Assembly: GCA_021799595.1 (NCBI GenBank)
Contig: JAJZAF010000001.1
Coordinates: 20,328 to 84,327, forward strand
Direction: 5' to 3'
DNA length: 64,000 bases
Source: a bacterium
GTDB taxonomy: Bacteria > Patescibacteriota > Saccharimonadia > Saccharimonadales > UBA4665
The position numbers and the translations under genes are program-made. The first letter of the stretch is position 1. Each line of letters begins with the position of its first letter. Positions 7,364 to 64,000 of the stretch are shown here, one piece after another. Under the pieces are notes generated by a model. The model ran no database searches, had not been told where the DNA came from, and was given only the letters and a program-made list of their open reading frames with translations.

Positions 7364-7380
7364 GCTCCTCCTTAAAAAGA

Positions 7381-8346: not shown

Positions 8347-8439
8347 CGTAAGTTATTATATATGCTCTGTCGAAAATCTTACGTTCATATAATTTGATGT
8401 ATGGTTTAATGACTAAAAACTAATAACGTAATACGTAAT

Positions 8440-9396: not shown

Positions 9397-9671
9397 TGGA
9401 AAGGCAAGACGCTATTCTCTATGATAAAGTTATTGCTATTACCAGTAATTACCTCGGACCAGCAGCTAATCGATTTATTGACCGACAAATTGAGGGTCAT
9501 TTGAAAAAAACCACAAAAGAATTAAGCGCCAAAGACGTATTAAGTTTACTTGACTGGATACAAGCCGCCGTTGCACTGCTTACAGAGGATAACGGCATTG
9601 TCGAAGAATACGTTAGTCGGCTGCGCCAATTGGCTGAGGACAATAGTAAGAAACCTGGGAAGAACAGATGA
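9396..9671 (+). CDS. small soluble hypothetical protein (91 aa)
   Basis: The start overlaps the upstream stop by 1 nt (TAATG). Its stop overlaps the kinase start (ATGA). It therefore appears translationally coupled on both sides. Confidence 0.5.
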   Translation: MERQDAILYDKVIAITSNYLGPAANRFIDRQIEGHLKKTTKELSAKDVLSLLDWIQAAVALLTEDNGIVEEYVSRLRQLAEDNSKKPGKNR

Positions 9672-46401: not shown

Positions 46402-47286
46402 CTAGTTGTTGTTACCGCTGCCGGTTACGATACCAGTGTTCGTGGTAGTCGTATTGCCACTGTTGTTGTTACTTGTGTTATTGGAGTTTGCATTGTTGTT
46501 TGAGCCAGTAGTGTTACCGTTGTTGTCCCCATTGCCAGAGTTGGTAGTGTTGCCATTAGCATTGTTAGAGCCATTACCGTTGCCAGAGTTAGTCGTGTTA
46601 CCTGAGTTTACGGTATTACCATTACCATCGTGAGAGTTGGTAGTGTTGCCAGAGTTAGTGGTATTACCAGAATTCACAGTATTCCCATTGCCATCATGAG
46701 AATTGGTAGTGTCACCGTTCCCATTGTGCGAGTTTATAGTGTTGCCATTGTTGGAGCCATTGCCATCATGTGAGTTGACAGTGTTGCCGTTGTTGTTGTG
46801 TGACCCGTTGCCGTCAAAAGAGCCAATAATTTTCTTAGTATTGTTGCTATCAGTCGTGTTATTGCTATCAGTTGTATTGTAACTTCCACTTATATTAGTA
46901 GTATTTGTTGTTGTCGAGTTATTAGTCTCAGTGTTGTAGCTGTCCATGACACCGCTACCGAGTGGCACTAAGCCGCCAAAAGATGTAGATGGAATACTTG
47001 CAGTAAATGTGCTTCCACTAACTCCGCCAATAGAGTTTGATTGTGTTGTCGGTTGTGTGCAGGTGCTCGTATCGCCGCTTGCTGAAGAAGTAGTGGTTAC
47101 ATCTGCCGTTGGCAAAACCTGAGACAGTTCTTTATATAAGCTGTTGTTCATCTGACTCATGTCAGAACGCATGATGTTGCCAAGAATAGCTGCTGTAGCA
47201 ATCACGGTGATAACGCCACCGAGAAAGAAGGCGGCAAAAGTCAGCATTAGTGTTGGTTGATACATTTGTTGGTTATTCTGGACCAT
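46402..47286 (-). CDS. membrane-anchored low-complexity N/T/G/S-rich repeat protein
   Basis: N-terminal TM helix (LMLTFAAFFLGGVITVIATAAILG). The C-terminal half is built from GNT(V/T/I)NS / HDGNG units. Confidence 0.6.
   Translation of the reverse strand: MVQNNQQMYQPTLMLTFAAFFLGGVITVIATAAILGNIMRSDMSQMNNSLYKELSQVLPTADVTTTSSASGDTSTCTQPTTQSNSIGGVSGSTFTASIPSTSFGGLVPLGSGVMDSYNTETNNSTTTNTTNISGSYNTTDSNNTTDSNNTKKIIGSFDGNGSHNNNGNTVNSHDGNGSNNGNTINSHNGNGDTTNSHDGNGNTVNSGNTTNSGNTTNSHDGNGNTVNSGNTTNSGNGNGSNNANGNTTNSGNGDNNGNTTGSNNNANSNNTSNNNSGNTTTTNTGIVTGSGNNN
46405..46840. repeat. imperfect in-frame tandem repeats encoding the GNTxNS / HDGNG units
   Basis: Near-identical DNA blocks recur (for example ...ccattaccatcgtgagagttggtagtgttgcc... 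and ...ccattgccatcatgagaattggtagtgtcacc...). Confidence 0.6.
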
Positions 47287-47558: not shown

Positions 47559-47633
47559 TCCGGGGTAGCTCAGCGGTAGAGCGGGGCGCTGTTAACGCTT
47601 AGGTCGCTGGTTCGAATCCAGTCCCCGGAGCCA
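47559..47633 (+). tRNA. tRNA-Asn: tRNA-Asn (anticodon GTT), CCA encoded
   Basis: I folded the cloverleaf by hand. Acceptor stem TCCGGGG/CCCCGGA, D arm GCTC-AGCGGTA-GAGC, anticodon stem GGGCG/CGCTT with loop CTGTTAA, T arm GCTGG-TTCGAAT-CCAGT, discriminator G, then CCA. Confidence 0.95.
47608..47633 (+). repeat. 26-bp direct repeat, copy 1 (3' end of tRNA-Asn); att site
   Basis: TGGTTCGAATCCAGTCCCCGGAGCCA is identical to 49052-49077. Confidence 0.95.
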
Positions 47634-47805
47634 GGACTTGTGCTAAAGGTGATTTGATTACATAATATATCTTATCACGTCTGTTATTTCAGAAAACCAA
47701 GTTGCTTATTACGTAGGCAAATTATTTTTATGTATCGCAAGTTGGTATGTGTTAGACTAGTGCTAGACCGAATTACATCAAAGTTGCGTAAATCTAAGAT
47801 ACCCT

Positions 47806-48447
47806 TTATTTTAGATACAGCTTTGAGAATTTTTTACCATCAATAACTTGCAAAACCGAACCATCTCCAAAAGGCTCTCCATCAGGATAAGTGGAAAATG
47901 TGTCAATACACCATACCTTGCGTTTAATTTCATAGCACGTTTCAGAAGGAGTGTGCCCAAATACTTGAGGTACGTATTTGTATGTCACGTTACTGTTAGG
48001 TCGTGCCCAAATCGGGCTAGTATCATTCCATAGACTATTTGAATCTTCGACTCCAGACCATTCATTGGTTATGCCAGCATGAGAATAAGATACTGCGTCT
48101 ATCTTAACAACAATAGGTAGGCTGGCAAGCCATTGCCTTAAATCTTTATGCTCTGGTGCATCAATTAAGATATGTGTCATCGGATTATAGCCACTTTGCA
48201 GTGAAGGAGTGTCGTGAACATATATATAATCATGGTTACCAATAACCAACTTAACTTTATCTTGGTTTTTAGCCTGAAGATCTTTTAAGGCTTTCCAAGT
48301 CTTTATAGTATCTTGTGGGCTAGCGCTAAAGTCATCTGCGTAATCACCACAGAAAATAACTTTGTCGTAGTGCTTAATAATTTCAGCAACCTTATCTATA
48401 ATCCAGATTTTGGTGTGGATATCACCAACCGCAAGCACTTTTCCCAT
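47806..48447 (-). CDS. calcineurin-like metallophosphoesterase (Ser/Thr phosphatase / phosphodiesterase family)
   Basis: VLAVGDIHTK, FCGDYADDF, VIGNHDY, SHAG, VFGHTP. The ATG lies 2 nt after the toxin stop. Confidence 0.75.
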   Translation of the reverse strand: MGKVLAVGDIHTKIWIIDKVAEIIKHYDKVIFCGDYADDFSASPQDTIKTWKALKDLQAKNQDKVKLVIGNHDYIYVHDTPSLQSGYNPMTHILIDAPEHKDLRQWLASLPIVVKIDAVSYSHAGITNEWSGVEDSNSLWNDTSPIWARPNSNVTYKYVPQVFGHTPSETCYEIKRKVWCIDTFSTYPDGEPFGDGSVLQVIDGKKFSKLYLK

Positions 48448-48449
48448 AT

Positions 48450-48791
48450 TTACCCGCGCAATTTACGTATACGCTCCCGTACCGATTCTTGATATTGCTT
48501 AGGATTTTGCATCTGATGATAGGCACGAACAGCTATGACTTCGAAGCAATCATCATCTATCAGATACACAACTGCGACTTTGTAATTTGCTAGTTGAACT
48601 TTGCGTACATCTGGGTCATCTTTAAATACAGCGTTAGCTCGTGGTAAGTTTTCTAAGTTTGCCACGGTTTCCATAGTCTCATCAAAAAACTTTGTAGCCG
48701 ACTCAGCGTCAACTAATTCTTCATAAAACGCCATCAGCTCAGCAATATCATTCTCGGCATCTTCTGTAAGACTGACGCTATACTTTTGCAC
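48450..48791 (-). CDS. RelE/ParE-family type II toxin
   Basis: 113 aa with a GTG start. Features are A..DI..L..FY at the N-terminus, LPRANAV, and YKVAVVYLIDDDCFEVIAVRAYH (a ParE-like Y.i.Y......v.I..v.H pattern). An overlapping small upstream gene precedes it. Confidence 0.6.
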   Translation of the reverse strand: MQKYSVSLTEDAENDIAELMAFYEELVDAESATKFFDETMETVANLENLPRANAVFKDDPDVRKVQLANYKVAVVYLIDDDCFEVIAVRAYHQMQNPKQYQESVRERIRKLRG

Positions 48792-48945
48792 CAGCCAGCT
48801 CCTGATATTTCTTCAAGATATTCTTCTTGGCTATGCTAAGTGGTATACGATTTTTAGGATTTTTGGCAAGTTTAATACGTCGTTCCAGATCAATCAGGAA
48901 CTCTTGACTGTTTTCGTCTACGTTAATAACCTTACTGTTATTCAT
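48778..48945 (-). CDS. putative antitoxin (55 aa; too short for the ORF track)
   Basis: My own translation is MNNSKVINVDENSQEFLIDLERRIKLAKNPKNRIPLSIAKKNILKKYQELAGAKV*. Its stop overlaps the toxin GTG by 14 nt. Confidence 0.5.
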   Translation of the reverse strand: MNNSKVINVDENSQEFLIDLERRIKLAKNPKNRIPLSIAKKNILKKYQELAGAKV

Positions 48946-48951
48946 GCTTTA

Positions 48952-48960
48952 ATTATACCA
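48952..48960 (-). promoter_or_regulatory. extended -10 promoter (TGgTATAAT) of the antitoxin-toxin-phosphoesterase operon
   Basis: On the minus strand TGGTATAAT ends 6 nt before ATG 48945, which implies a leaderless or near-leaderless mRNA. Confidence 0.45.
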
Positions 48961-49044
48961 CATTTCATTACATAAAATGATTGAAATAATTTGACAAATA
49001 ACAGAGGTAAGTTAAAGTAAAGCGAGCCTAAAATTAGGTGGTAA

Positions 49045-50559
49045 TTATTGTTGGTTCGAATCCAGTCCCCGGAGCCATTCTGAACGTTCATTGCATGAAG
49101 CTATTGTATTAAACGGACTGTAAAGGGTTAATTCGACCTTTTTACCGTCCAAAAACAGGTTCGAGCCTAATAAGCCCAATAATTCCCGTTTTTCGTCGGG
49201 GTTAGAACCGATAAATAGCTCTCGGCCACGGGCAGCGATTTCCAACAGATACGCTACAGTAATGTAATACTGCTCGTCGGCCTTTGATAACTTACTCAGC
49301 TTACGCTCATGCTGCTTCTGTTCAGCTCGCCACTTGGCTCTCTTTTTGTCATATTCTGCCTGAGTAATACTACCGTCGCACTTATCCTCGTAGGCTATTT
49401 CTATACGCTTTTCTAGTTTTGCTATTTCAGTGTTGTGATAGTTGAATTGCTCACGATTGAACTGCACCTTGCCGCTATGAGCCTCTTTTAGGGTCTTTTC
49501 GAGCCTTGGCAGCTCATCTTCGGGCAGTTTACACTCGTCAAATAACTGAGCAAAGATTTCGGTTAGGTCGGTTTCTGCCATCCAATCCATTTTCGGGTGC
49601 TTACCACGCTTGCCAGTGCAATGGTAATAAGTGTAGGTGTGTACGTTGCCGTTTTTCTGCTTTTTTGTCTTGACCTCGGCAGTTACGGCACAACCACAAG
49701 CCTTGCAGTGCATGAAGCCTCGATAGGTGTGCGGTATGCCAGCATACTTAATCTTTTGCTTGGCATGGCCGTTGATTACATCCTGAACCTGCCAGTATAG
49801 GTCAACAGGCACGATTTGCTCGTAGCTATGGGCGTAGTAGTTGTCTGTTTCCTTGTCATAAATCTCGCCAATATAGAAGCGGTTTTTAAGTATCACGCCA
49901 ATAGCGCTCCAGTGTATATGCACTTTGTAGTCGGACATGATGCGCTGCGACAGGGTCTTATACGAAAAAGTGCCAGTGGCGTAGAGTTCGAACATCTTTA
50001 GCACGACTTTGGCTTTGAATGGTACGGCCACGACAGTTTTGTGGCGCTTATCTACTTCAAGGTTCTGATAGCCAAACGGCGCAAGCCAGGGTAGCTCACC
50101 ATCTCGCAACTTGGCGTATTTGGTATTGAAAGCATCTTCTTTTAAACGGTTTAGCACCTGTTTGGCCAGATAGACTTTGGTGTCCCAGTCAGTAATATCA
50201 CGACCAACTGAACGCTTAGTAATCACGAGCCTATCGTGGACAAAGTGCAATTCTTTATCATATTCCAGCCGCAGGATATCCATCGCAACATGGTCAGCGA
50301 AGTTTCTGGTTGCCCTATCAACTCTGAACGCAATTATTGCTTCGACGTCCTTGTCCTTTTTGACATCGTCCATCATCTCATTGAACTTCTTGCGTATGCC
50401 CGCATCGGCGCTTTCACTAAAAACGTACTCATGGACTATCTCAAAGTCATTCAGCTCGGCATATTCCCGCATCTTAGGGAGTTGGATTTCTTCGAGAGAT
50501 AGACCCTCTTGCTCTTGTCGCTTGGTTGATACTCTTGCTAAGATTACTGCTTTACGCAT
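49045..50559 (-). CDS. large serine recombinase (integrase)
   Basis: N-terminal resolvase domain AVILARVSTKRQEQEGLSLEEIQ with the catalytic Ser. A recombinase domain follows, then a Cys-rich zinc ribbon FMHCKACGCAV...YYHCTG and a coiled-coil tail. The protein is 504 aa. Confidence 0.9.
   Translation of the reverse strand: MRKAVILARVSTKRQEQEGLSLEEIQLPKMREYAELNDFEIVHEYVFSESADAGIRKKFNEMMDDVKKDKDVEAIIAFRVDRATRNFADHVAMDILRLEYDKELHFVHDRLVITKRSVGRDITDWDTKVYLAKQVLNRLKEDAFNTKYAKLRDGELPWLAPFGYQNLEVDKRHKTVVAVPFKAKVVLKMFELYATGTFSYKTLSQRIMSDYKVHIHWSAIGVILKNRFYIGEIYDKETDNYYAHSYEQIVPVDLYWQVQDVINGHAKQKIKYAGIPHTYRGFMHCKACGCAVTAEVKTKKQKNGNVHTYTYYHCTGKRGKHPKMDWMAETDLTEIFAQLFDECKLPEDELPRLEKTLKEAHSGKVQFNREQFNYHNTEIAKLEKRIEIAYEDKCDGSITQAEYDKKRAKWRAEQKQHERKLSKLSKADEQYYITVAYLLEIAARGRELFIGSNPDEKRELLGLLGSNLFLDGKKVELTLYSPFNTIASCNERSEWLRGLDSNQQ
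49052..49077 (+). repeat. 26-bp direct repeat, copy 2 (tRNA-Asn 3' fragment); att site
   Basis: Exact copy of 47608-47633. It lies inside the last 9 codons of the recombinase gene on the opposite strand. Confidence 0.95.
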
Positions 50560-50588
50560 GGTTCATTACTCCTTACTCATATATTACC

Positions 50589-51752
50589 TTAATTGTGTTG
50601 AGCGAAGTTAATTAAATAAACGGGTTCGAACTTTTTGAGTTGCTCGCTAAGCTGTTCAAACACTTCCGATTTCTGAGAGCTGTATTTCAGCTTATTATTA
50701 GCTCGTCGAGCCGCTCTAAGCAGCGCTGCGCTACCTTTCGAGCCAACAATGTCCTTTACCGTTCTCGTGCCGCTGTACTGGCTCAGGGTATGCAGCCCAA
50801 CAGCGCTCAGTATCGTTGAAACTTGACGATTCGGGTTCTGAAAATACAGGTCGCCGAACAGTTCCAGCGGGTCGGTAGTCGCAGCTTCTGTTATCTTCGG
50901 ATAGTGGTCATACATATCCTTTAGCTGCCATTCCAGTACTGCCTTTGAGCCGGTTTTACTGTAAAGCGCCACAAAGGTCGTGTTATCTGTCGGCAGCTGA
51001 GCATTACGAAGCGCCTGTTGTATAGCTTTAACGTTGCCCAGCCTGACTTCCATTCGCAGTACCTCAAACGGTTGCTGCATGATATTATCATCGAAAAGAT
51101 TGAGCTGGATTTGACCAACATCCTTATCGAAAATAGGCTGCCTGCGCCTTGCTTTGGTATATTCGGCAAGCTTATCGTAAAACGCCAGTTCGAAGTACTT
51201 AGAGTGGCTCTTGAAGCCATGCCCATTATTTATATAGTCAGTCTTGCTAGCATCACGCCAGCCATTCACGTCTATACGACTTAAATCCTTAATTGCGGCA
51301 TGAGCCGAGAGGTAGCCGCTCAGCACAAAGTTTTTGGAGTAGTGAATTGTTACCACTTGGGCATTTGCAATTGTTGGCACGCCGCCCCGAACCTTAACCT
51401 TGTAGTATGCAAGTCCGTCGTAAATACGCTGGCATATATCGTCAAAATCGCTTTCCTCAATTTCATCGAAGTTATTGCCATTGAGTAACTTAGGTACAGA
51501 CAGTTGAATACGTAAGCCTGTCGTCAATCCGCTAGCTCGCAAGGCTCTATAGAGCGTCAAATAGGGTAGGTATCCTTGCTTTACGGTATCCGCTTTAGAC
51601 GGATTGCACTTAGCGTCAAAATACTTATTGCGGCCCATGTCGTAGGCTGTAGCGCCTTGAATTTTCGTAGCGTTTGGCGTGAACCTGTTAGGCTCTAAAA
51701 TCGCATAGCTAGACGCTGGCAGGGTAAGCACTATCGTATCTATTCCGACCAT
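50589..51752 (-). CDS. putative replication initiation protein (phage/plasmid gene II/X-like)
   Basis: N-terminus MVGIDTIVLTLP, CNPSK and VLRMEVRLGN are reminiscent of the rep_II_X / Rep_trans families. This is a weak, motif-only assignment. Confidence 0.35.
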   Translation of the reverse strand: MVGIDTIVLTLPASSYAILEPNRFTPNATKIQGATAYDMGRNKYFDAKCNPSKADTVKQGYLPYLTLYRALRASGLTTGLRIQLSVPKLLNGNNFDEIEESDFDDICQRIYDGLAYYKVKVRGGVPTIANAQVVTIHYSKNFVLSGYLSAHAAIKDLSRIDVNGWRDASKTDYINNGHGFKSHSKYFELAFYDKLAEYTKARRRQPIFDKDVGQIQLNLFDDNIMQQPFEVLRMEVRLGNVKAIQQALRNAQLPTDNTTFVALYSKTGSKAVLEWQLKDMYDHYPKITEAATTDPLELFGDLYFQNPNRQVSTILSAVGLHTLSQYSGTRTVKDIVGSKGSAALLRAARRANNKLKYSSQKSEVFEQLSEQLKKFEPVYLINFAQHN

Positions 51753-52011
51753 TTTTCACTACATCTTCAAACTTAGTTATTACTGCGTCATGAATTTGCT
51801 GACCCGCATCCCTCGAAATGGGATGGAATACGTCGAGTTGGCGACCAGCTATTTTTCTAGTCGGGTACAGAAGCCTATAATCGCCGTTTGGTCGGCTCAT
51901 GATACCAACCGAGCCACAATAGATTGAGCCATTGATAACGAAGCTAGCGAACGCTACAAGGCCGTTCTGCGGCTTAACAACGGCTATTTCAACCTCGCTA
52001 ATTTCCAGCAT
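51709..52011 (-). CDS. SpoVG-like nucleic-acid-binding protein
   Basis: MLEISEVEIAVVKPQNGLVAFASFVINGSIYCGSVGIMSRPNGDYRLLYPTRKIAGRQLDVFHPISRDAGQQIHDAVI follows the SpoVG pattern (V.....G.L.A.AS...N..F.I..I.V....G......P.........D..HPI....R..I..AV). The start is taken at ATG 52011. Confidence 0.6.
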   Translation of the reverse strand: MLEISEVEIAVVKPQNGLVAFASFVINGSIYCGSVGIMSRPNGDYRLLYPTRKIAGRQLDVFHPISRDAGQQIHDAVITKFEDVVKNGRNRYDSAYPASV

Positions 52012-52180
52012 TGCAGCGCTCTTTCTTTTTACGTTGGTCAACTTTTATGAGAATTTCTAGTAAACGAGCCATGCGACGCAATTCAGCATCAGACCATAAC
52101 GGCTGCTGGTTCTTGTCTGGTTCATCACTGCGTGGTCGTCGTACCATGCAGCAGACTATAACTAGGCAACTGTCGGGCAA
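51998..52180 (-). CDS. small hypothetical protein (60 aa)
   Basis: It fills the gap between neighbouring minus-strand genes, with a 14-nt overlap downstream. No homology was recognised. Confidence 0.3.
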   Translation of the reverse strand: MPDSCLVIVCCMVRRPRSDEPDKNQQPLWSDAELRRMARLLEILIKVDQRKKKERCNAGN

Positions 52181-52195
52181 CGTTGCACGTGGGTG

Positions 52196-53143
52196 CTAGA
52201 CGTATTTTTCGTTGAAAGTAATTTGGTGATTTTCGATTATAAAGAGGTCGTCAACTTGGGTTGCCTTAGCAATTCGTTCGTTAAGCTCACGCTTGGCGTA
52301 GCTTATTTTCTTATTGTCCTTGACCCTATCTAACGGCACGCCGAGCTTCAGTAGCGCATCACCAATTTCTAACGGCCTCTTTACGGGCTTGCCGCTTCGG
52401 AACAACAACTGGCACAGAGCCTCTTGGTCGGTATTTGCCGGAATGACAATAACCGTATTGCAAAATATAAGCTGGCGCTTGGCCTTATTGTAAGTCGGGG
52501 CAGTCAGTCTTTTATCCGTTTGTTGGCTATTATTATCAGCTATCTGCTGCAATAGCCGGACCTGCTCGGCCTGATAAACATTTGGCCTTGGCATTGGTAT
52601 TGAACTGACTGCCGGTAGTTTAAATTGCTCTCGAAAGTCATTTATAGTCTGAAAAGTTTGTTCGACTTCTTGCTTGTGTTTTGGCATCAAATGTTCTTCA
52701 AATATACGGTTACGCTCAGCCTCGGACATTTCATACAGTTCATTAACTTGACCGGCGCTTATGTACTTATCTTTATTTTCTTCTGGCGTGGCCTGAAAAT
52801 CGACCATGTTTGCACCAAGTACGGGACCTTTTGAGATAGGCTTTTCGCCAGTATAGTCTTGGTAAATCTTAGTTTGCCTAAGCTTATCGTGGTATCTGTT
52901 AAAACTTTTATTCAATGAAAGTTCCCAGCAATGGGTTGCGCTAGTTTCAGGTACTCTCAATACTTTTAGTATCTTGTCGTCAGTAGCAAATTTCTCTAGT
53001 AAAGTTTTCATGTCCTCGTAAGGAACGGCCTTATGAAGGTCATTAGCATAATGTATGGCCACAGGTTTACCCTTTGGGGTAATCTGCCGCTTTTTATCAA
53101 TAGTCCTTAAAACGTAAATTATTGCTTCTTGACCGGCCACCAC
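52196..53143 (-). CDS. hypothetical protein (315 aa), first gene of the leftward element operon
   Basis: Long ORF with no recognisable motif. Confidence 0.45.
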   Translation of the reverse strand: MVAGQEAIIYVLRTIDKKRQITPKGKPVAIHYANDLHKAVPYEDMKTLLEKFATDDKILKVLRVPETSATHCWELSLNKSFNRYHDKLRQTKIYQDYTGEKPISKGPVLGANMVDFQATPEENKDKYISAGQVNELYEMSEAERNRIFEEHLMPKHKQEVEQTFQTINDFREQFKLPAVSSIPMPRPNVYQAEQVRLLQQIADNNSQQTDKRLTAPTYNKAKRQLIFCNTVIVIPANTDQEALCQLLFRSGKPVKRPLEIGDALLKLGVPLDRVKDNKKISYAKRELNERIAKATQVDDLFIIENHQITFNEKYV

Positions 53144-53259
53144 TTCTTTAACCTCACTACTTCTTCGCTTTCAGATATTTTACAATCAAAATACCTTTTT
53201 TTCGGCTGCTATTACCTCATTCTTCCCAAAACAACTAGTAAGTCGTGTATAGTTATAGT

Positions 53260-53448
53260 ATGCCACAAAAGGGTAAGAAGTTGCCGCAATTGCTTACGCT
53301 GAAACAAACAAGCAAAATGCTTCAATGTCATCCAAACACTCTTAGAATGTGGGATAAAAATGGCATTTTAAAAGCCGTTCGAATAGGTAGCCGTGGGGAT
53401 CGTCGCTACAACAGGGACGATGTATTAAAAATCATAAAGGATAAGTAA
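53260..53448 (+). CDS. MerR/excisionase-family HTH protein (controller or recombination directionality factor candidate)
   Basis: LLTLKQTSKMLQCHPNTLRMWDKNGILKAVRIGSRGDRRYNRDDV matches the MerR/HTH_17 pattern (TLR.W...G.L...R...G.R.Y...DV). ATG 53260 is preferred over GTG 53245. Confidence 0.65.
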   Translation: MPQKGKKLPQLLTLKQTSKMLQCHPNTLRMWDKNGILKAVRIGSRGDRRYNRDDVLKIIKDK

Positions 53449-53453
53449 GAATA

Positions 53454-55427
53454 GTGGACGACAAAGCACAAAACGGTAATTTACCCGAGCAAAATAGCTT
53501 TTTCAAAATTGATAAGCTAAAGCGTTCTGTTAGAGCGGGAACACAACTTCCTGACCCAAAAATTGAGCCTTATGGCTACGATCCCAACGCCAAGTTTAGG
53601 CACATTTTCCCCGAACTTAACCTACCGCCCCTGTTATCAAATTTGCCCGATGACCACGTTACGTTTGGCCATCCTGAGTTGCCAGACACCACATTATATT
53701 TTGGTGATAACCTTTATGTTTTACGTAATATGCCAAGCGAGAGTGTAGATTTGATATACATTGACCCGCCTTTCTTTAGTAAGCGAGATTACGTGCAAAT
53801 TTGGGGTGACGATAATGAAATTCGTTCATTCCAGGATATTTTTGAAGATGGCATGTTTAGCTATTTAACTTGGCTCAATGCCAGGTTGTGGGAGATGAAA
53901 AGAGTTCTTAAAAATACAGGTAGCATTTACGTACATTGCGATTGGCACGCCAGCCATTACATTAAGGCAGAAATGGACAAAATATTTGGCTACAGCAACT
54001 TCAGGAATGAAATAATCTGGTACTACCCCTCAGGCGGTGGTAGAACAAAAGTCACTTTCAATAGAAAACACGATAGTCTGCTTTGGTATTCAAAAACCGA
54101 TAACTATAAATATCTTATCGACAACATTCGTGTCAGTTATAAAGAGACTTCGATGTACTCCAAATATGGCACAGTTCATCATGGTACTGGCAAAGAGTAT
54201 AAGCCTGATGTCAGTTCGGGTAAAAACCCTGACGATACATGGGAGATGAATATATTAAATCCTACTGCACACGAACGCATTGGCTATCCAACCCAAAAAC
54301 CGCTGGAGGTTGTGCAGAGGATAATTGATGCACATAGTGAGCCAGGTGACGTTGTGGCGGATTTTTTTATGGGCGGCGGTACATTTGGGGCTGCTGCACT
54401 TGGTCAAAGAACTGAAATAGGTGCACCTCTGTCGGGTACGAAGTATTACTATGATAAACCAAGAACTTTTATTGGGTGTGATATTTCTCGTGTTGCTACG
54501 AGTGTGACATTTAATCGTCTAACTGAAGTCTGTGAACAGATGTCTGGCATAACTGCGTCTGAAAAGTCAGGTCAGCAACAACTTGGAGCAGAGCTTGCCA
54601 AAGTGCCTGATATTCGTACCGCTTATGTAGGTAGTTACCCTATTAATAAGTTTGATGGCATAGAACAAAAAGCATTTACTAACTTTGTGATAGGACTATA
54701 TGGTGCAAGCACATACACAGGTGAAGGTGACGAAATAGACGGACTCGTAAATGGCAAGGTTGTTATTTCAGTTGGGCCAGCTAGCCCTTCTGAGCGTGTT
54801 CAGGTCATGAAAGTTAGAAGGGTTCTAGAGCAAGTATTGCGTCAATATAGTAAACAACTTGCTGCTGGCGAGGAAAAGATTATTCAAATAATTGGTTGGT
54901 CTTTTGAACCGTTAGTAGATCGCTGGAAAGGTGACGCTACAAACACCCTAAACAAGCAAGGGTTAAAAGTTACCATAGAGCTTATAAGCCTTAGTAGTGA
55001 GGCATTTCGGCAAAAGATATTTCGTGAGATCGGTGAAAGCAATACAGACTTGAAGTTCAACCGGCTTAATCAGTTGCTGAGTTTTACCAGTACTCCTACA
55101 GCTGGCCATATTACAATAACTAAACAAAGAGGTTTGGAGTGCGAGTTTGCTTTGGTAGGAGCACAGGCGATTGGTGCTGGCGGCAGACTCATAAATGCAC
55201 AGTGGGATTTTGACTATAAAGACAAACGTTTTTCTGATAAAGCTCACGCCCTCAATAGAGCTGGTAAAGCGGGTACTTACGAAGCTGTGCTAAGCGTAAC
55301 TCACAAGTTCGAAAAACCTGGTAAGTATGTTATTGCAGCTAGAGTTCAAGATAACCTAGACGGCGAAGCCGTTACTGTTGCTGAGTTAAGTATAAGTAAT
55401 AGCTCACATGAGCTACAATTATCATAA
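53454..55427 (+). CDS. beta-class N6-adenine/N4-cytosine DNA methyltransferase (Type III Mod-like) with a roughly 310-aa C-terminal extension ending in a PKD-like domain
   Basis: GDNLYVLRNMPSESVDLIYIDPPFF (motif IV DPPF), then YPTQKPLEVVQRII and DVVADFFMGGGTFGAAA (motif I). The IV-before-I order defines the beta class. The tail contains AQWDFDY...THKFEKPGKYVIAARVQDNLDGEA. GTG start. Confidence 0.85.
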   Translation: MDDKAQNGNLPEQNSFFKIDKLKRSVRAGTQLPDPKIEPYGYDPNAKFRHIFPELNLPPLLSNLPDDHVTFGHPELPDTTLYFGDNLYVLRNMPSESVDLIYIDPPFFSKRDYVQIWGDDNEIRSFQDIFEDGMFSYLTWLNARLWEMKRVLKNTGSIYVHCDWHASHYIKAEMDKIFGYSNFRNEIIWYYPSGGGRTKVTFNRKHDSLLWYSKTDNYKYLIDNIRVSYKETSMYSKYGTVHHGTGKEYKPDVSSGKNPDDTWEMNILNPTAHERIGYPTQKPLEVVQRIIDAHSEPGDVVADFFMGGGTFGAAALGQRTEIGAPLSGTKYYYDKPRTFIGCDISRVATSVTFNRLTEVCEQMSGITASEKSGQQQLGAELAKVPDIRTAYVGSYPINKFDGIEQKAFTNFVIGLYGASTYTGEGDEIDGLVNGKVVISVGPASPSERVQVMKVRRVLEQVLRQYSKQLAAGEEKIIQIIGWSFEPLVDRWKGDATNTLNKQGLKVTIELISLSSEAFRQKIFREIGESNTDLKFNRLNQLLSFTSTPTAGHITITKQRGLECEFALVGAQAIGAGGRLINAQWDFDYKDKRFSDKAHALNRAGKAGTYEAVLSVTHKFEKPGKYVIAARVQDNLDGEAVTVAELSISNSSHELQLS

Positions 55428-55429
55428 GC

Positions 55430-57544
55430 ATGATTAGCCAAACCGACATTGATTTTAAGCAATGGATAGAGGCTCCAGACTTTCCAAATATACAAAACGA
55501 CCGAGCCAAATACCATGCAAAAACTTTCGTAGAGCGATTATCTAGTGGCGAGTTTCCAAAGCCACTATATAACCATCAGCAGGAAGCCATTTTGCGAGTT
55601 ATTTTCCATGGCGAAAAGAAGGGCGAATGGGATAGCCTGCTCGACATTGTAACGGGCGGAGGTAAAACAGTTGTCATGGCCGCTTTAGTTGCCTACTTCT
55701 GGCAAGTGCACGGTATAGAGAAGTTCCTCGTTTTGACACCAAACACCATAGTTAGAGAACGAGTAAAAGATGACTTTGAGCCAAATAATCCAGGCTTTGC
55801 ATATAATGACTTCCCTCTATTCTTCAATTCATTTACGAACATACCTCGCAACATAGTTACAAAAGTTCTGCGAGGGCAAGGCGATGAAGCGTCTGTAAAA
55901 GATGCAAATGTAATAGTTGCTAACATCCATCAGCTTTATGAGGGTCGAGAAGCCCTTGAACTGCTACTGGCCGACAACATTACACCGAGCCTAGTTGTTT
56001 TTAATGACGAGGCGCATAACGCTTCAGCAGATAAGTACCGAGAGGTGCTAAAGCTGCTTAAACGTAAAATCCACGCACGCATAGATTTAACAGCCACACC
56101 CTTTAGGCTAGATAGACGTGACTTGGATACTTACCCGCCCGTATACGAATATCATATAGAGCAAGCTACGAGAGACGGCATAGTCAAAAATACCCTAGTA
56201 ACCAAACCGGATATAGAAAGTGTACATCTGCAAGTCGAAGAGTGGGATGAGCAGGATAACGTAGTTAGAACGTTGGAAGCCGAGGATGTACCCTGGGAGC
56301 AAATAGAAGCACAGCTAAAAAATGCAGGAGCGGTTAGGTTCGTTACGGCCAAGACCGCTCGGAAACAACAGCTTCAAATTGCTCAAACATGCTTAGAATA
56401 CCAACAAAAAGGCGTACCACTGGATGTTAATGGTCACAGGCAATGGCAGCCACTCATGCTAGTAGTAGCTCTATCGCAAAAAGATGCACAAGCTATATAC
56501 GAGACTCTGCAAAAAGCACCATTTTCTTATAAATCAGAAGAGTTGTTACTGGCACATAGTAATAGGGATGAATACGAGAATAAGAAGGCGTTTCTTTTGG
56601 GGCGAAAAAGTCCGGCAGGCTTAGAAGCTCAAGATGCCGCATTATGGAAGCAAACTCGCAAAGTGAGAGTAATAGTTGGGATAAGCATGTTGCGTGAAGG
56701 CTGGGACGTACAAACAATCAGCGTAATCTGCCTGTTCAGGAAGTTTAGTTACCAGAAAAAAGGCGACCAAATCTACACCATCTACGGACCTCAAATCATT
56801 GGACGTGGCTTACGTAAAATAAGGTCAGGAAAACAGATTGACCACTTGTTTGTTATAGACCATCCGGCCTTCAACCACGACTGGCTTTGGCAGCTCATGG
56901 CTGCTCAGCAGTATAGTAGGCCGTTAAATCCAGGCGACGATGTTGAAGATGATGTTATAGAAAAGATGGATAGTATGTTCGAAAATGAGCAACAAAATGC
57001 CGAACCGCCTGTCGGCGAAACAGGCGAAGAGCTTGATGTTGATAAAATTATGGCCAGCTTGCCCGATCTACCAGAAGTCGAGCCAATGAAAGAATGGCAG
57101 GCGTATTTTGAAGGACTAAAACTCAACACTAGGATTGCCAATGCTGTTCAGAAAATAGTTAATCTGAAAACAAAATCTGTAATATCTGCTAACACAGCAC
57201 ATGAGATACCAGACGCAGAGCTTAATAAGCCAGAACTAGTACAAAATTTATATGAGGCCGAAAACAAGAGCCGTGAGGCGATACTTGCCGAAGTTAGAGC
57301 TGATATTGATGAAGCTCCACGCCAAGCTCTCTACAGCTCATTTAGGCAAATGAATGCAGAACAACTACTCGCTATGAATAACGGGCTATCTTGGATATTC
57401 GATAAAAAGTTTGGCATAAAGCAACTTGATCATGCCACTGACGCACAACTGCTTAAACTGCATTTTGCACTACCACAAGTTTTAGAAGAATATCAAAAAC
57501 CCGAAGTGGTCTTAGGCATACTAGAAACATATGGTGCAGAGTAA
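55430..57544 (+). CDS. SF2 helicase, Type III restriction Res-subunit-like (ResIII plus helicase C), without a recognisable nuclease domain
   Basis: Motif I VTGGGKTVVMAA, motif II VVFNDEAHN, motif III DLTATP, motif VI GISMLREGWDV. The C-terminal ~200 aa are acidic and helical. Confidence 0.8.
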   Translation: MISQTDIDFKQWIEAPDFPNIQNDRAKYHAKTFVERLSSGEFPKPLYNHQQEAILRVIFHGEKKGEWDSLLDIVTGGGKTVVMAALVAYFWQVHGIEKFLVLTPNTIVRERVKDDFEPNNPGFAYNDFPLFFNSFTNIPRNIVTKVLRGQGDEASVKDANVIVANIHQLYEGREALELLLADNITPSLVVFNDEAHNASADKYREVLKLLKRKIHARIDLTATPFRLDRRDLDTYPPVYEYHIEQATRDGIVKNTLVTKPDIESVHLQVEEWDEQDNVVRTLEAEDVPWEQIEAQLKNAGAVRFVTAKTARKQQLQIAQTCLEYQQKGVPLDVNGHRQWQPLMLVVALSQKDAQAIYETLQKAPFSYKSEELLLAHSNRDEYENKKAFLLGRKSPAGLEAQDAALWKQTRKVRVIVGISMLREGWDVQTISVICLFRKFSYQKKGDQIYTIYGPQIIGRGLRKIRSGKQIDHLFVIDHPAFNHDWLWQLMAAQQYSRPLNPGDDVEDDVIEKMDSMFENEQQNAEPPVGETGEELDVDKIMASLPDLPEVEPMKEWQAYFEGLKLNTRIANAVQKIVNLKTKSVISANTAHEIPDAELNKPELVQNLYEAENKSREAILAEVRADIDEAPRQALYSSFRQMNAEQLLAMNNGLSWIFDKKFGIKQLDHATDAQLLKLHFALPQVLEEYQKPEVVLGILETYGAE

Positions 57545-57998
57545 ACGTGGCAAACTAACCAATTTAAAAAAGAGTGTAGCCACATCGGAAACATTTGACT
57601 CCTTACTTGAACGTGACTACATGTTAGAACTTGAACATAATCCAGCCGTCAAATCTTGGACAAAACAACATAAAATAAAGATCCCTTATTCAATCTTTGG
57701 TATCAGACGCAATTACTTGCCCGACTTTCTTATTACTTTCCAAAATGGCCAGCAAGAGTTACATGAAACAAAGGGGGCTGGTTTTCTAACGTGGCTGTCT
57801 ACTTATCGTAAAAGGATTGCTGGCGACCACTGGGCTAAAACGCACGGAATGAAGTATAGGTTTATAGAAAACTCTAATGGCGCTTTATTTGGCACGAACA
57901 TGGCAATTGAAAGTGCTGTTAAAGGCAAGGAATACTCCAGCATTGACGAGCTAATGGCTAAAGAAGGACCTGATGAAAAAGGCAATACTACACAATAG
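57531..57998 (+). CDS. stand-alone PD-(D/E)xK nuclease, TnsA N-terminal-domain-like
   Basis: SLLERDYMLELEHNPAVKSW, YLPDFLITF, QELHETKG and a KYRFIEN tail follow the TnsA_N pattern (E ... PDF ... E.K). It overlaps the helicase stop by 14 nt. Confidence 0.65.
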   Translation: MVQSKRGKLTNLKKSVATSETFDSLLERDYMLELEHNPAVKSWTKQHKIKIPYSIFGIRRNYLPDFLITFQNGQQELHETKGAGFLTWLSTYRKRIAGDHWAKTHGMKYRFIENSNGALFGTNMAIESAVKGKEYSSIDELMAKEGPDEKGNTTQ

Positions 57999-58683
57999 AT
58001 TGGTTTTGCTATGGGCTAATCCTACACGAGAAAAATTAAAAAAATTTTACGCATCAACTGGCATTTTTAATGATAAGGACGATGCTCAAAATCTAATAAA
58101 GTTCGGGGCTTACTTAATTTTTAATGGGCATAGACAGTCGGAGGATGAAAAGCCTTATGATAGTACTATTGGATTAAATAATTGGGTTAACAGTTTAGAG
58201 GGTTATATTTTGTTTCACGTAGGTACGGAGTATTTTTTGAAGGGAGTTTTCTTGTATAAAGGGTATGCAATAAACAAACTTAAAAAAATATACTCACTGC
58301 CAGAACCCTATAAAATTGCAAGAAATCATCGTAAACTTGACGCTTCGGAAACGCACACCTTTGGCTACTTTACCAAAAACATCACAAAAATAGTTGATTT
58401 TACTGAGTTTGACAAACAGCAAAGTTCCAAAAATAAGATATACAAAGGCAAAAAACCAGTAGGGATTATATCTACGAGGTTTAAGCACCCCAATCATGAA
58501 CAGTTACTTTATTACCTGCAGTTTTCAAGAAATAAATATCTTCATACAAGAAGAAAGATACCAGAATTTAAGGGCATAACTGATGACGTTATGGAATTGT
58601 TGAACTTTATTAGTGTCTATGTTTGTCAAAAAAATATTGAAGCACTTAGTGACTTAGAGAAAATAAGCGTTGAGAACTCTTAG
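57973..58683 (+). CDS. hypothetical protein with a HEPN-like RNxxxH motif
   Basis: 236 aa with GAAGGA 5 nt upstream of the ATG. LYYLQFSRNKYLHTRRK contains R-N-x3-H (Rx4H), the canonical HEPN active-site motif. The sequence is visibly A/T-rich. Confidence 0.35.
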   Translation: MKKAILHNRLVLLWANPTREKLKKFYASTGIFNDKDDAQNLIKFGAYLIFNGHRQSEDEKPYDSTIGLNNWVNSLEGYILFHVGTEYFLKGVFLYKGYAINKLKKIYSLPEPYKIARNHRKLDASETHTFGYFTKNITKIVDFTEFDKQQSSKNKIYKGKKPVGIISTRFKHPNHEQLLYYLQFSRNKYLHTRRKIPEFKGITDDVMELLNFISVYVCQKNIEALSDLEKISVENS

Positions 58684-58687
58684 CTAT

Positions 58688-58999
58688 ATGAGCGACGATA
58701 TAAAACCCGAAGACAAAAGAAGAATGTATAAAAGCATATTTGTAGACACTGCTAAAGCTATGGCTCTAGCGCTCATTGCGTTTGCTGTATTGCTGTGGTT
58801 TTATAAAAACCAAATTTCAGTAAGTAGCCCATCAATAATCATAGGAGTAATCGGGACTGTATTGATATTTATTGGTGGCATGATGATTAGCGATGCATTA
58901 GGTAGGTATGGGGCTAAAGGACTGCCGCAATTTACATGGGGAGCAAGAATGCAAAGCATGGGGCTGGGCTTTATAATTGTTGCTCTCTTGATCAAATAG
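58688..58999 (+). CDS. small three-TM membrane protein
   Basis: MSDDIKPEDKRRMYKS followed by three hydrophobic helices. ATG 58688 lies 4 nt after the upstream stop. The ORF also opens at TTG 58670. Confidence 0.5.
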   Translation: MSDDIKPEDKRRMYKSIFVDTAKAMALALIAFAVLLWFYKNQISVSSPSIIIGVIGTVLIFIGGMMISDALGRYGAKGLPQFTWGARMQSMGLGFIIVALLIK

Positions 59000-59231
59000 C
59001 AAGCTAAATCAGGTAGCTTGATAGGCCCTAAATGTAACTAGATTCTTCAGTTTATAATGTCCTATAGCGGATGTTTGGCATGCGTGACACATACGCCTGA
59101 CATCTGGTTGGAGCAGTTATTGAATAATCTGCTAAACAGCTGCACCAATGAGTGAAGTTCGTCTTAACCCTAGCCGATTAGCCAAATCACGAAGGTAATT
59201 GACATCAACCCGATACTCAAATGAGAGGTTC

Positions 59232-59258
59232 CTGATTGAATGGTGTAAGGGGAGCCAG
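59232..59258 (+). other. degenerate tRNA-Asn 3'-end-like sequence; tentative attR of the 10-kb element
   Basis: CTGATTGAATGGTGTAAGGGGAGCCAG aligned to CTGGTTCGAATCCAGTCCCCGGAGCCAG gives 18 matches over 28 aligned columns (one gap), including GGAGCCAG. Chance similarity cannot be excluded. Confidence 0.2.
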
Positions 59259-59356
59259 ACCAAGCACCAACAGGGCAGAACCAAAAGCATAAGTTTTTCA
59301 CAAAGTCCGAGACGTAACGTGTGGTTTTTTTAGCTTCCTTGTGATTCAATGGCTTT

Positions 59357-61748: not shown

Positions 61749-63638
61749 CTACCTCTTTTGGCTTTTTTGACGACGAATAATTGCTCGATCAATTCCAAGA
61801 AGTACAGCAGCACCCCCCAGCCCGCCTATAACCAGCCACCAATTAATACTGTGTTGTAGTGGATCTTTGGCAACTGACATTGGGTGGGTTTGAGTACTTG
61901 TATTATTCAAGTAGCTTGCTAATGCTACGCTATTTCCTGCTCCTATCAGACCGCTATTACTGGGGTCACCTGATGTTGTATTAAGTGCTATACAATATTG
62001 ATTACTAGATTGTTGTCCTTGACCAGAAGTAGCTGCCGGGTTAAAAATAACAAGCGCAGGCAGAGTAATATTTTTGGACTCGGTCGAAGAAAGTACCGAT
62101 ACAGCATTGGAGGTTAAAGGTGCAGCTGAATCATTATACAGCCCAAGGCTACCATACCAATTGCCAAGAACATTGATAAAGAGAATACCAAACCAGCCAC
62201 TCAGATCGAATTGATCACCAAGGAAGTTAACAATATTAGCTTCTGCCAATGCATCACCACTGGTAGCATTACCGCCGACACCATTACCGGATACTATGGC
62301 ATTGCCGCTGTCGGCGCTCAACGTTATATAGTTATTGATTGTCTCGGTATTATTGCTGGTCACATTACTATTGGACGGCAAACAAACAGAAGAGCTATTG
62401 CCTCCATCGAGAAGAGCAATATTAGAATTGTCAGAGCTATTTAGTATAAAGCCGGTCCATGTTCCAGCCACATTGACAATAACAAGCAGAGCATTCGATG
62501 CAATGACCTGGCTTCCAGTCAAGTTATAGATAGTTAAGTCAGTCGTGGCGTTTCCGCTGCTAGCATTACCGCCAACACCATTATTAGTAACGAGAGCTTG
62601 GCCTGATTGGGCAAGGAGCGCAACCTGGTTATTAATCGTAAAGTTGTTATTTAAGGTTACGAGACTGGGCTTGCTCTCGCCTTGATTGGTGGGGGGAGAG
62701 TTATTCAATAATGAGTCAACAAGCTGCTGAGGGATTAATATGTTGCCGACGACATTCCCATTAACGGTAACCGTACCAATAACATTGATAAGATTAGCCA
62801 GCGCTTCAGCCGTTCCACTGGTAGCATCTCCCCCAACACCATTTGACGTTACCGATGCATTACCACTATCCGCACTCACGGTAGCGGTATTATTAATAGA
62901 AGCATTGTTCGTAGAGGAAGTATCCGTAACAGACGAGCCAGAACTAGATGATCCATTTTGTTCAGCCAGCGAGACAGGATTTATGGTAATATTACCATTC
63001 ACATTCCCGTTGACGGTGTAGGTAAACGTCAGAGGCTGGTTACTCGACGAAGTATTATTGATCTGATTAATAAGATTTAGTTCGCCTTCAGAAGACCCGC
63101 TCGTTGCATCACCACCGACATTGTTTTGTGTGACAGTAGCATTGCCTGATTGAGAATTCAAGGCATCATTATTATTAATTGTAGCTGTATTCGCACTGTT
63201 TGATGTATCGCCTGGTGTATTACTTGATGAGCTAGGGGACACAAGAGAAGAGCTAGAATTGTTAGAATTGTCATTTGTTACTGGCTGTGTCGTTGTTGAA
63301 GGGGTAGAGCTAGAAACAGGATAATTATCTAGGTTGTTGTTAGTCGGAGATGGGGAAGAAGTAGTAGTCCCTGAGGTCTCACTTGTCCCACCAGAACCGC
63401 TTTGAGCAGTTTGTGTGTTTGTTGAGTCTGTACTTACTGAAGAGTTATTTGTCGCTACATTAGATATGCAGCTGCTTGGTGTCACATTGTTAGACGACTG
63501 ACATACATTGTCTGCAAATACATACTCAGGTCGACTGACAGCCAGAGCGACAAAGATAAATAAAAGACTGCCTGCAATCGACGACTTAGTTCGAACGAGT
63601 TTCATTATAACCTTTGGGTAATTCATATCATATTTCAT
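61749..63638 (-). CDS. large S/T/N-rich surface protein with four internal repeat modules and a C-terminal TM anchor
   Basis: N-terminal signal/TM (IAGSLLFIFVALAVS). There are four modules of the type SGNA.V..N.VGG(D/N)A(T/S)SG........(I/V/Y)N. The C-terminus is WWLVIGGLGGAAVLLGI plus a basic tail RRQKSQKR. Confidence 0.7.
   Translation of the reverse strand: MKYDMNYPKVIMKLVRTKSSIAGSLLFIFVALAVSRPEYVFADNVCQSSNNVTPSSCISNVATNNSSVSTDSTNTQTAQSGSGGTSETSGTTTSSPSPTNNNLDNYPVSSSTPSTTTQPVTNDNSNNSSSSLVSPSSSSNTPGDTSNSANTATINNNDALNSQSGNATVTQNNVGGDATSGSSEGELNLINQINNTSSSNQPLTFTYTVNGNVNGNITINPVSLAEQNGSSSSGSSVTDTSSTNNASINNTATVSADSGNASVTSNGVGGDATSGTAEALANLINVIGTVTVNGNVVGNILIPQQLVDSLLNNSPPTNQGESKPSLVTLNNNFTINNQVALLAQSGQALVTNNGVGGNASSGNATTDLTIYNLTGSQVIASNALLVIVNVAGTWTGFILNSSDNSNIALLDGGNSSSVCLPSNSNVTSNNTETINNYITLSADSGNAIVSGNGVGGNATSGDALAEANIVNFLGDQFDLSGWFGILFINVLGNWYGSLGLYNDSAAPLTSNAVSVLSSTESKNITLPALVIFNPAATSGQGQQSSNQYCIALNTTSGDPSNSGLIGAGNSVALASYLNNTSTQTHPMSVAKDPLQHSINWWLVIGGLGGAAVLLGIDRAIIRRQKSQKR
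62200..63160. repeat. four divergent in-frame repeat modules (about 80-110 aa each)
   Basis: The module cores are QSGNATVTQNNVGGDATSGSSEGELNLINQI, DSGNASVTSNGVGGDATSGTAEALANLINVI, QSGQALVTNNGVGGNASSGNATTDLTIYNL and DSGNAIVSGNGVGGNATSGDALAEANIVNFL. Confidence 0.7.
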
Positions 63639-63741
63639 AAACGTCTCTCTCTATGTAATTATGTCCGCATACGAGTACTGAAGGGGTAAAATCGAGGACT
63701 GCTAGCATACCTCGTATTTCCCCCTTGAGTACTACTGAGTA

Positions 63742-64000
63742 TTAGTTGTTAGAGATGGTGACACTCGATGTCTGAGTGCTGCTATTGCTAGCGTTGCCAC
63801 TGATAGCAGTACCATTATTCCCACCAGAAACCTTTGCATTACCCGAAACAGCGGTTTGCTCACTGTCGTTTGTAACGCTAATGTTGTTGGTATTGGAGGT
63901 GTTATTGTTACCGATGTTGGTAACTTGAAAACCGCCCCTTGGATCGCCATTGCTATTCATGTCAGATGGAGTCGAAGTCTTAGCCTTGTTGCTAATTGAC
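63742..64000 (-). CDS. paralogous S/T/N-rich surface protein; the N-terminus lies beyond the right edge of the window
   Basis: The frame stays open upstream of the track's ATG 63960 to the window end (..SISNKAKTSTPSDM..). It contains the same module type (QTAVSGNAKVSGGNNGTAISGNASN). Confidence 0.55.
   Translation of the reverse strand, partial: SISNKAKTSTPSDMNSNGDPRGGFQVTNIGNNNTSNTNNISVTNDSEQTAVSGNAKVSGGNNGTAISGNASNSSTQTSSVTISNN

Follow-up and report, generated by a model that had tools for sequence, protein, structure and literature searches.

The only tRNA gene that ARAGORN finds in the window analysed here, a stretch of 64,000 nt from a Candidatus Saccharimonadales genome (contig JAJZAF010000001.1, assembly GCA_021799595.1), is an intact tRNA-Asn(GTT) on the plus strand (47559-47633; Rfam RF00005, 67.4 bits), and an Rfam scan gave no match besides this tRNA. 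Its 3' end recurs further downstream, directly next to the gene of a large serine recombinase (LSR), which raises the question of which mobile units have entered this tRNA, where each of them ends and in which order they arrived. An initial annotation had described the exact repeat, a toxin-antitoxin pair and a phosphoesterase between the two copies with no integrase, and a recombinase-headed block of about 10 kb, and had read the locus as a tRNA-Asn integration hotspot holding two separate units, one of them without an integrase. This description held throughout, including the far boundary, which had been placed at about 59258 and was right to within one base. What the annotation missed is the recombinase gene itself, which appears to be split across the attachment (att) site.

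In our view this tRNA-Asn very probably marks an insertion hotspot, occupied by two nested layers. The first would be an older 1.4-kb toxin-antitoxin/phosphoesterase cassette (47634-49051), ending in a conserved block of 62 nt (c62) and in the 26-nt tRNA copy, which together with the original tRNA trailer would make up a second, decoy attachment site. The second layer, an integrative plasmid-like element of 10.2 kb with genes on both strands (49078-59257), would have inserted into this decoy. Its attP would lie within the LSR gene, at a Trp codon whose TGG is complementary to the tRNA CCA and which stands between the folded body of the enzyme and a tail of 41 residues, and the crossover would fall inside a shared core, GGAGC(CA). 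Upon integration the frame of the body would run on antisense to the tRNA end for nine more codons up to a stop, leaving the true last 41 codons stranded at the far end of the integrated element, and excision would rebuild a gene of 535 aa on a circle that the putative replication protein (Rep) of the element could replicate. As a whole, we hold this explanation with good confidence.

The repeat and the ends of the 10.2-kb element

The 26-mer TGGTTCGAATCCAGTCCCCGGAGCCA is present in exactly two copies, one formed by the last 26 nt of tRNA-Asn (47608-47633) and the other, a tRNA-Asn 3'-end fragment also on the plus strand, at 49052-49077, and the number of such repeats expected by chance, estimated from 100 shuffles, is zero. 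No further copy with up to three mismatches occurs within the window, and searches with the repeat halves and a general repeat scan of the window likewise showed no third copy of the 26-mer or of its halves. The third att-like site that the initial annotation had called for is nevertheless present, at 59251-59257, as a core of 7 nt (GGAGCCA) and not as another copy of the 26-mer; such a short core would be in keeping with a serine integrase.

On the right, the element terminates at this core. A terminal block of about 130 nt (59125-59257 in the window) is conserved in the related elements L015, L017, L018, L021 and L022, and all its copies end in ...CTGATTGARTNGTGTARGGGGAGCCA (...GTGTARGGGGAGCCA), after which similarity breaks off abruptly. 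In six other elements the block ends at the position corresponding to 59257, and homology of the window to related elements ends there, immediately after GGAGCCA. These 7 nt are all that the block shares with the tRNA end, and the shared core narrows to GGAGC in the distant elements L033 and L032. On the left, repeat copy 2 provides the host-side arm of attL, in which the fragment is joined to TTCTGAACG..., and on the right the host-side arm of attR is the displaced 3' trailer of tRNA-Asn (GACCAAGCACCAACAGGGCAGAACC..., 59258-59284, plus strand).

The closely related element L111, found in another genome, has a SpoVG-Rep-LSR core that is 92% identical to that of the window at the nucleotide level (LSR, 98% aa identity) and lies directly on a complete tRNA-Asn, with the junction CCA/TTCTGAACGTTCATTGCATGAAGC as in the window. 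Its terminal block likewise ends in GGAGCCA, and its cargo and flanks differ from those of the window. Since the same core and junctions are found with other cargo and other flanks, the mobile unit of the window is 49078-59257.

The predicted junction of the tRNA end with GACCAAGCACCA was matched in 13 metagenome contigs, which come from related yet distinct species (SmpB, 52-78% aa identity). In these contigs GACCAAGCACCAACAGAGGTAG, with a hairpin and a T-run behind it, forms a conserved 3' trailer/terminator of tRNA-Asn, which comes after complete tRNA-Asn genes and also after fragment copies of the tRNA that are preceded by c62. A reading of GACCAAGCACCA as unique chromosomal flank was ruled out by this conservation. 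In the window, the LSR element sits between the c62-preceded repeat copy 2 and the trailer, and its excision in silico (48985-49077 joined to 59258-59300) gives an unbroken alignment to unoccupied c62-fragment-trailer sites, with identities of 96/108 (89%) to L106 and 95/108 to L103. The junction of the restored site would read ...GGTGGTAATTATTGTTGGTTCGAATCCAGTCCCCGGAGCCA/GACCAAGCACCAACAGGG..., and that of the reconstructed attP ...TGATTGAATGGTGTAAGGGGAGCCA/TTCTGAACGTTCATTGC... (containing ...GTGTAAGGGGAGCCATTCTGAACG...). The comparison with empty loci that the initial annotation had proposed gave unoccupied sites matching the restored site; the assemblies that share the exact SmpB, LSR or orf384 proteins include no empty site, all of them being occupied.

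A different delimitation would have 47634-59257 moving as a single 11.6-kb unit into the genuine tRNA-Asn, with repeat copy 2 as an internal relic. Deleting 47634-59257 also yields a common junction, that of the tRNA with GACCAAGC, and contigs of two independent assemblies (Logan and MEGAHIT) end at 47634, just past the tRNA end ...GGAGCCAG (CCA+G), as might be expected of a branch point at which the tRNA is followed by GA...; a third contig begins at 47605, 30 nt earlier (contigs L003, L005 and L010). This branch is most simply attributed to a co-occurring strain with a variant in which GA... follows the tRNA, and a contig from the same sample runs unbroken through 59258. Moreover, the LSR core of L111 has moved without the cassette, the cassette is found alone in other species, and the far-end block continues the LSR frame when joined to 49078 and not when joined to 47634. 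We therefore regard movement as one unit as very improbable.

Some other ends were also seen. Repeats of 15-21 nt at the far ends of L015 and L017 were considered as element ends and rejected as older scars lying beyond the true end, and additional degenerate fragment-trailer scars occur downstream of several tRNA-Asn genes. In L021 (11440-11600) the partner of the LSR gene at the junction is not a tRNA but a sequence ending in GGTGAGCCA, a secondary integration site that retains the core. L017 (1900-3200) carries the terminal LSR tail block twice and retains part of the 3' end of another LSR gene; these are tandem elements, of which one is degraded.

The recombinase gene and its detached tail

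In its integrated form the LSR gene (49045-50559, minus strand) encodes 504 aa. The protein ends in EWLRGLDSNQQ, and its last nine codons (WLRGLDSNQ of this tail) are the reverse complement of repeat copy 2, so that the copy not only abuts the gene, as the initial annotation had stated, but also encodes its end; the body proper consists of residues 1-494 plus Trp495. When the terminal block is read on the minus strand and joined to this body at the CCA/TGG codon, it continues the LSR frame, and the reconstructed protein has 535 aa, with WLPLHHSIRNLSFEYRVDVNYLRDLANRLGLRRTSLIGAAV as its tail before the stop codon.

The detached tail (59132-59257, minus strand; 41 codons and a stop), which also provides the element-side arm of attR, behaves as a conserved open reading frame (ORF). 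It is open, with the same stop position, in L015, L017, L018, L021, L022 and L111, and the other two frames of the block contain stops. Variable sites are distributed over the three codon positions as 17/14/25, and among the 284 codon differences counted between pairs, 115 are synonymous. P0025 and P0033, two unsplit homologues without tRNA overlap, have C-termini to which the tail can be aligned, and weaker matches are present in the more distant tRNA-Asn elements L033, L066, L024 and L032, at whose far ends they start on the shared core with the opening motif (W/V/E)LPL.... Judged from these sequence features, the detached block is real coding sequence of the LSR gene, and it is highly likely that attP lies inside this gene and that integration splits it.

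The N-terminal catalytic domain is well recognised (PF00239, Resolvase; residues 4-110, 37.6 bits, cut-off 23.3), and the remaining two domains, Recombinase (PF07508, 21.0 bits, cut-off 21.1) and Zn_ribbon_recom (PF13408, 21.5 bits, cut-off 25.3), are both borderline in the window protein; Recombinase and zinc-ribbon domains are annotated in most of its homologues, and the protein matches a PHROG integrase family (E = 4e-48). In the AlphaFold model of P0033, long helices (348-444) are inserted between the zinc-ribbon strands and the Trp residue stands directly after the last folded element, which suggests that the integrated LSR probably keeps all folded domains. A structural role for the C-terminal tail was also considered and set aside, as the model is uninformative in this region (predicted local distance difference test, pLDDT, <50).

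Two further tails were observed. The tail exon of L111 (6127-6252) is about 56% identical to that of the window (59132-59257; 23/41, counted by hand) and the bodies are 98% identical, a difference that suggests a reshuffling by recombination of the LSR gene pieces or of the cargo-side end. P0121, a related LSR fragment on a Logan contig of 1216 nt (83% identical over the aligned end), has yet another tail after the Trp codon (LGKWFLFQTFDEL...), which implies a further kind of junction.

Overlap with tRNA genes across the recombinase family

The search for LSR homologues retrieved 708 proteins, the closest from metagenome-assembled genomes of Candidatus Saccharimonadales. An ending of the form W-L-R-G-x-D-S-N-x-R-P, which is the translated antisense of the CCA, acceptor stem and T-arm of a tRNA, recurs in homologues down to 46% identity. 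We examined 80 related LSR loci from species-representative genomes. A complete convergent tRNA is found at the 3' end of the LSR gene in 53 of them (23 Asn, 15 Gln, 10 Trp, 3 Arg, 1 His and 1 Ser), and at least five further loci have a partial tRNA at a contig end. Gene and tRNA overlap in 47 of the 53 cases, mostly by 24-30 nt, and in the other six the gene ends just before the tRNA.

Most of the 80 loci also have SpoVG and/or Rep homologues just upstream of the LSR gene. Loci with this SpoVG/Rep-LSR arrangement span Saccharibacteria, Paceibacterota, Dojkabacteria, WWE3 and Shapirobacteria, together with some bins carrying other labels. We found no account of this LSR family, or of a self-splitting serine integrase, in the literature, our coverage of which was incomplete.

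A circular relative and the mobility of the element

A distant member of the family has been assembled in its free form. L112 (Logan SRR27639468_4858; 10,847 nt) has a terminal overlap of 30 nt, and as Logan contigs are assembled with k=31, this overlap equals k-1, the usual signature of a circle. It encodes SpoVG, Rep, an HTH_17 protein directly upstream of the LSR gene, and an unsplit LSR of 536 aa (P0033), and its cargo is a set of copper/metal resistance genes (P-type ATPase, CsoR-like repressor and DUF305).

Variation at the window locus itself was found in assembly GCA_021831545.1, in which contig 30 (L004) carries a phosphoesterase/ParE cassette about 12% divergent from its window equivalent (47750-48766) and attached to a tRNA flank identical to that of the window. 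As a divergent cassette is thus found on an identical flank, the tRNA-Asn hotspot is polymorphic. The same assembly also has a contig with a window-type cassette joined to the LSR, which would correspond either to two strains or to two tandem cassettes.

Several observations weigh against a mobile element with a split integrase gene. For the window element, neither an excised circle nor a repaired site nor a junction read was seen, all assemblies with the exact window proteins show the integrated arrangement, and the attP junction and far-end block have no matches in IMG/VR. A protein search found no protein with the rebuilt tail of the 535-aa form, returning only the fragment P0121 with its different tail, and the pLDDT below 50 of the tail in the unsplit homologue lends it no structural role. 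Several unsplit LSR homologues are encoded on long, apparently chromosomal contigs, from which it follows that a gene-internal attP is not universal in the family. The 7-nt core would be unremarkable on its own, though it stands exactly at the element boundary. Finally, the Pfam score of Rep is barely over the cut-off (Phage_CRI/G2P, PF05144; 23.0 against 21.7 bits), and Rep has no relatives in PDB, NCBIfam, PHROG, or the phage and plasmid collections.

The lack of presence/absence polymorphism among the assemblies with the exact proteins would also be expected if the locus were a decayed island, in which repeat and recombinase are immobile remnants and the tRNA-antisense tail is a damaged gene end; degraded tandem copies do exist elsewhere, as in L017. 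Against such decay, all ORFs of the element are intact, the detached tail is itself an intact ORF of conserved length, a core of 92% identity stands at a different site in the L111 genome, and the circular relative L112 exists. We consider decay improbable, and retain the explanation by an integrated element with a gene-internal attP.

The integrase-less cassette and the order of insertion

Cassette 1 (47634-49051, about 1.4 kb, minus strand) was recognised from its Pfam domains and from homologous modules beside tRNA-Asn in other genomes. It encodes a calcineurin-like metallophosphoesterase (47806-48447, minus strand; Metallophos, E = 1e-11), a ParE toxin (48450-48791, minus strand; PF05016, ParE_toxin, 26.5 bits against a cut-off of 23) and a putative antitoxin of 55 aa (48778-48945, minus strand), which matches no family and whose gene overlaps that of ParE by 14 nt. 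The small overlapping antitoxin gene ahead of the toxin is the layout of ParDE systems, and the pair is kept in L100, L101 and L106. A Pfam search of these three genes, the only ones between the repeat copies, identified no recombinase.

Full antitoxin-ParE-phosphoesterase modules adjoin tRNA-Asn in L100 and L101, together with c62 and the tRNA fragment; in L107 and L102 the modules are partial, interrupted by the contig end, and the copy in L106 is without the phosphoesterase gene. In all, at least four other species have cassette homologues with the conserved end and the tRNA fragment next to tRNA-Asn, and no LSR was found beside those of L100, L101, L107, L102 and L106 in the DNA fetched. 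Their proteins are closer to those of the window (ParE, 82-89%; Metallophos, 73-77%) than is the flanking SmpB (53-62%, in L100 and L107), which suggests horizontal spread of the cassette. The initial annotation had held that the same genes at this locus in relatives without repeats would make the block ancestral; relatives do share the small cassette, but always together with the repeats.

The cassette ends in c62 (48989-49051, plus strand), which lies directly upstream of repeat copy 2 and consists of a promoter-like site (TTGACA-16 nt-TAAAGT, a 10/12 match) followed by a hairpin, GCCTAAAATTAGGT (GCCTAAAATTAGGY). Using nhmmer and alignments, we found twelve copies of c62 in 10 sources (the window, L018, L088, L099, L100, L101, L103, L104, L106, with three copies, and L110), alongside varied cargo and invariably directly upstream of a tRNA-Asn 3' fragment. 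In the window, c62 is oriented antisense to the LSR gene and points into its 3' end. The hairpin shows weak covariation and is retained mostly through one-sided changes, and an RNA structure for c62 was therefore judged unconvincing. The block may serve as a recombination arm or drive a small tRNA-like RNA as its promoter, or it may be what is left of a decayed tRNA copy.

As to the order of events, the initial annotation had proposed that the recombinase element inserted first. On this proposal the LSR element entered the genuine tRNA-Asn and a cassette bringing c62 and a 26-nt mimic of the tRNA end was inserted later. Both orders require two events and give the same final map, which counts against any firm conclusion on this point. 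In favour of the recombinase-first order, in most relatives, including the closest, L111, the LSR stands directly on the genuine tRNA, and the genuine tRNA of the window lacks a trailer, as expected from an insertion right after its CCA. No cassette examined, however, contains a recombinase able to insert it into a tRNA-LSR junction. The cassette homologues with c62 and fragment that occur in other species without an LSR in the fetched DNA, the unoccupied c62-fragment-trailer sites, nearly identical to that of the window, and the LSRs of L018 and L088, which likewise stand on a c62-fragment, all favour the cassette as the first arrival. These two LSRs are 98% identical to each other, with different neighbouring cargo, and their lineage is not sister to that of the window LSR. 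Insertion of the LSR element first is thus unlikely, if still a serious contender, and the proposed order is probably to be reversed: the cassette was probably resident, and the LSR element landed later on the distal fragment-trailer site.

Stacking of cassettes reaches further in L106, where positions 1-9424 form an array of at least three units of c62 and tRNA fragment (with trailer and terminator). The cargo that these units separate is of toxin-antitoxin and defence types and includes Fic/DOC proteins, a TOTE-type primase-helicase, an SNF2 helicase and a ParE pair. The array is integron-like in layout, with tRNA fragments at its junctions. No recombinase, whether a tyrosine integrase or another type, was found in the cassettes of L018, L088, L099, L100 and L106. 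An integron was also considered for the window locus and rejected, since neither the window region nor the cassette arrays revealed a tyrosine recombinase, and the repeats are tRNA fragments and not attC sites.

Comparison with known integration systems

The proposed arrangement resembles that of the archaeal 'suicidal' integrases of SSV1, pTN3 and pT26-2, in which attP is located inside the integrase gene, so that integration into a tRNA partitions it and leaves proximal and distal gene pieces at the ends of the element, the intact gene existing on the circle alone; the window gene appears to be partitioned in this same way. The SSV-type enzymes, however, are tyrosine recombinases, in which the split cuts off the catalytic part and the pieces are inactive, whereas the window enzyme is bacterial, has the domains of a serine recombinase, and would lose only a tail of 41 aa beyond the folded domains of the AlphaFold model. 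According to a 2021 review (PMC8371274), self-disrupting recombinases are known only in Archaea.

In its resolvase, recombinase and zinc-ribbon domains and its long coiled coil, the window LSR is similar to the integrases of phiC31, Bxb1, A118 and SPbeta and to CcrAB of the staphylococcal cassette chromosome SCCmec, and its inferred attP and attB, like those of large serine integrases in general, have only a short identity in common. As in the staphylococcal cassette chromosomes, insertion is directed at the 3' terminus of a conserved gene, where composite arrays build up with neighbours that lack a recombinase. The best matches to curated families are nevertheless far below membership, with CcrB (NF047343) at 63.1 bits against a required 900 and XisF at 58 against 375, and the protein is not a recombinase of the CcrA/CcrB type. 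In contrast to Ccr and to the integrases of phages and of integrative and conjugative elements, the target in the window is a tRNA 3' end, which the LSR gene overlaps and at which it appears to be split; unlike in those phage and conjugative systems, the partner genes (putative Rep and SpoVG-like) are without relatives in phage or plasmid collections.

The stacking of elements and cassettes at tRNA genes of streamlined genomes recalls the tycheposons of Prochlorococcus (bioRxiv 10.1101/2020.12.28.424599), which also show partial tRNA copies between insertions, remnants, integrase-less pieces and a minority with large serine recombinases. The likeness is one of layout. Almost all tycheposons (910 of 937) use tyrosine recombinases, and for replication they carry primases or helicases; the available part of the account reports no gene-internal attP.

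A possible functional parallel is offered by the integration-dependent immunity of mycobacteriophages, where the att site lies in a coding region, so that a regulatory protein receives another C-terminus upon integration and behaves differently. There it is the repressor gene that is split, and integration is carried out by a tyrosine recombinase.

On a wider scale, the LSR family, widespread and mainly found in Patescibacteria, might use an attP in its own gene as an integration-state switch, the 535-aa form of the circle and the 504-aa integrated form with its tRNA-antisense tail differing in stability or in the preferred direction of recombination, and c62, fragment and trailer might act together as portable landing pads on which toxin-antitoxin and defence cassettes, as well as these elements, are stacked into arrays in tiny genomes. 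This is a tentative proposal, which we regard as possible and on the doubtful side. A bacterial serine counterpart of the self-splitting integrases would allow testing whether a gene-internal att site couples the form of the enzyme to its integration state.

Few mobile elements have been catalogued for Saccharibacteria and the other Patescibacteria, and few genetic tools exist for these bacteria. The present locus yields an element with precise limits, for which attB, attP, attL and attR can be inferred, and an integrase family with predictable tRNA targets across many lineages is raw material for integration vectors. The stacked cassettes, in turn, show the assembly of defence and toxin-antitoxin islands at one tRNA in very small genomes.

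Other genes of the element and its surroundings

Upstream of the LSR gene, and like it on the minus strand, the element carries the putative rolling-circle Rep (50589-51752), in which catalytic motifs were looked for and none identified, a SpoVG-like protein (51709-52041; Pfam SpoVG, 35.7 bits), a small ORF belonging to the conserved core beside the LSR (51998-52180) and a 315-aa protein of no assigned family (52196-53143). The plus strand begins with an excisionase-like HTH_17 protein of 67 aa (53245-53448; PHROG excisionase/regulator, E = 9e-8; TIGR01764; PF12728), which is conserved in L015, L017, L020 and L021 and is a candidate directionality factor or regulator.

The genes that follow on the plus strand form a variable cargo block (53454-58999), missing from the closely related L111 element, which has other genes there. 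They encode a DNA methyltransferase (53454-55427; Pfam, and a Type II/III methyltransferase in PADLOC), a ResIII helicase/restriction subunit (55430-57544; Pfam, and a Type III restriction endonuclease in PADLOC), a TnsA-like endonuclease (57531-57998; Pfam) and two ORFs without an assigned family (57973-58683 and 58670-58999).

The hotspot is flanked by low-complexity, repeat-rich proteins (46402-47286 and 61749-63638, both on the minus strand, and also 63732-63960), for which there is no Pfam match. Their genes have short degenerate nucleotide repeats in common (families D1-D7), and the proteins may be variable surface proteins.

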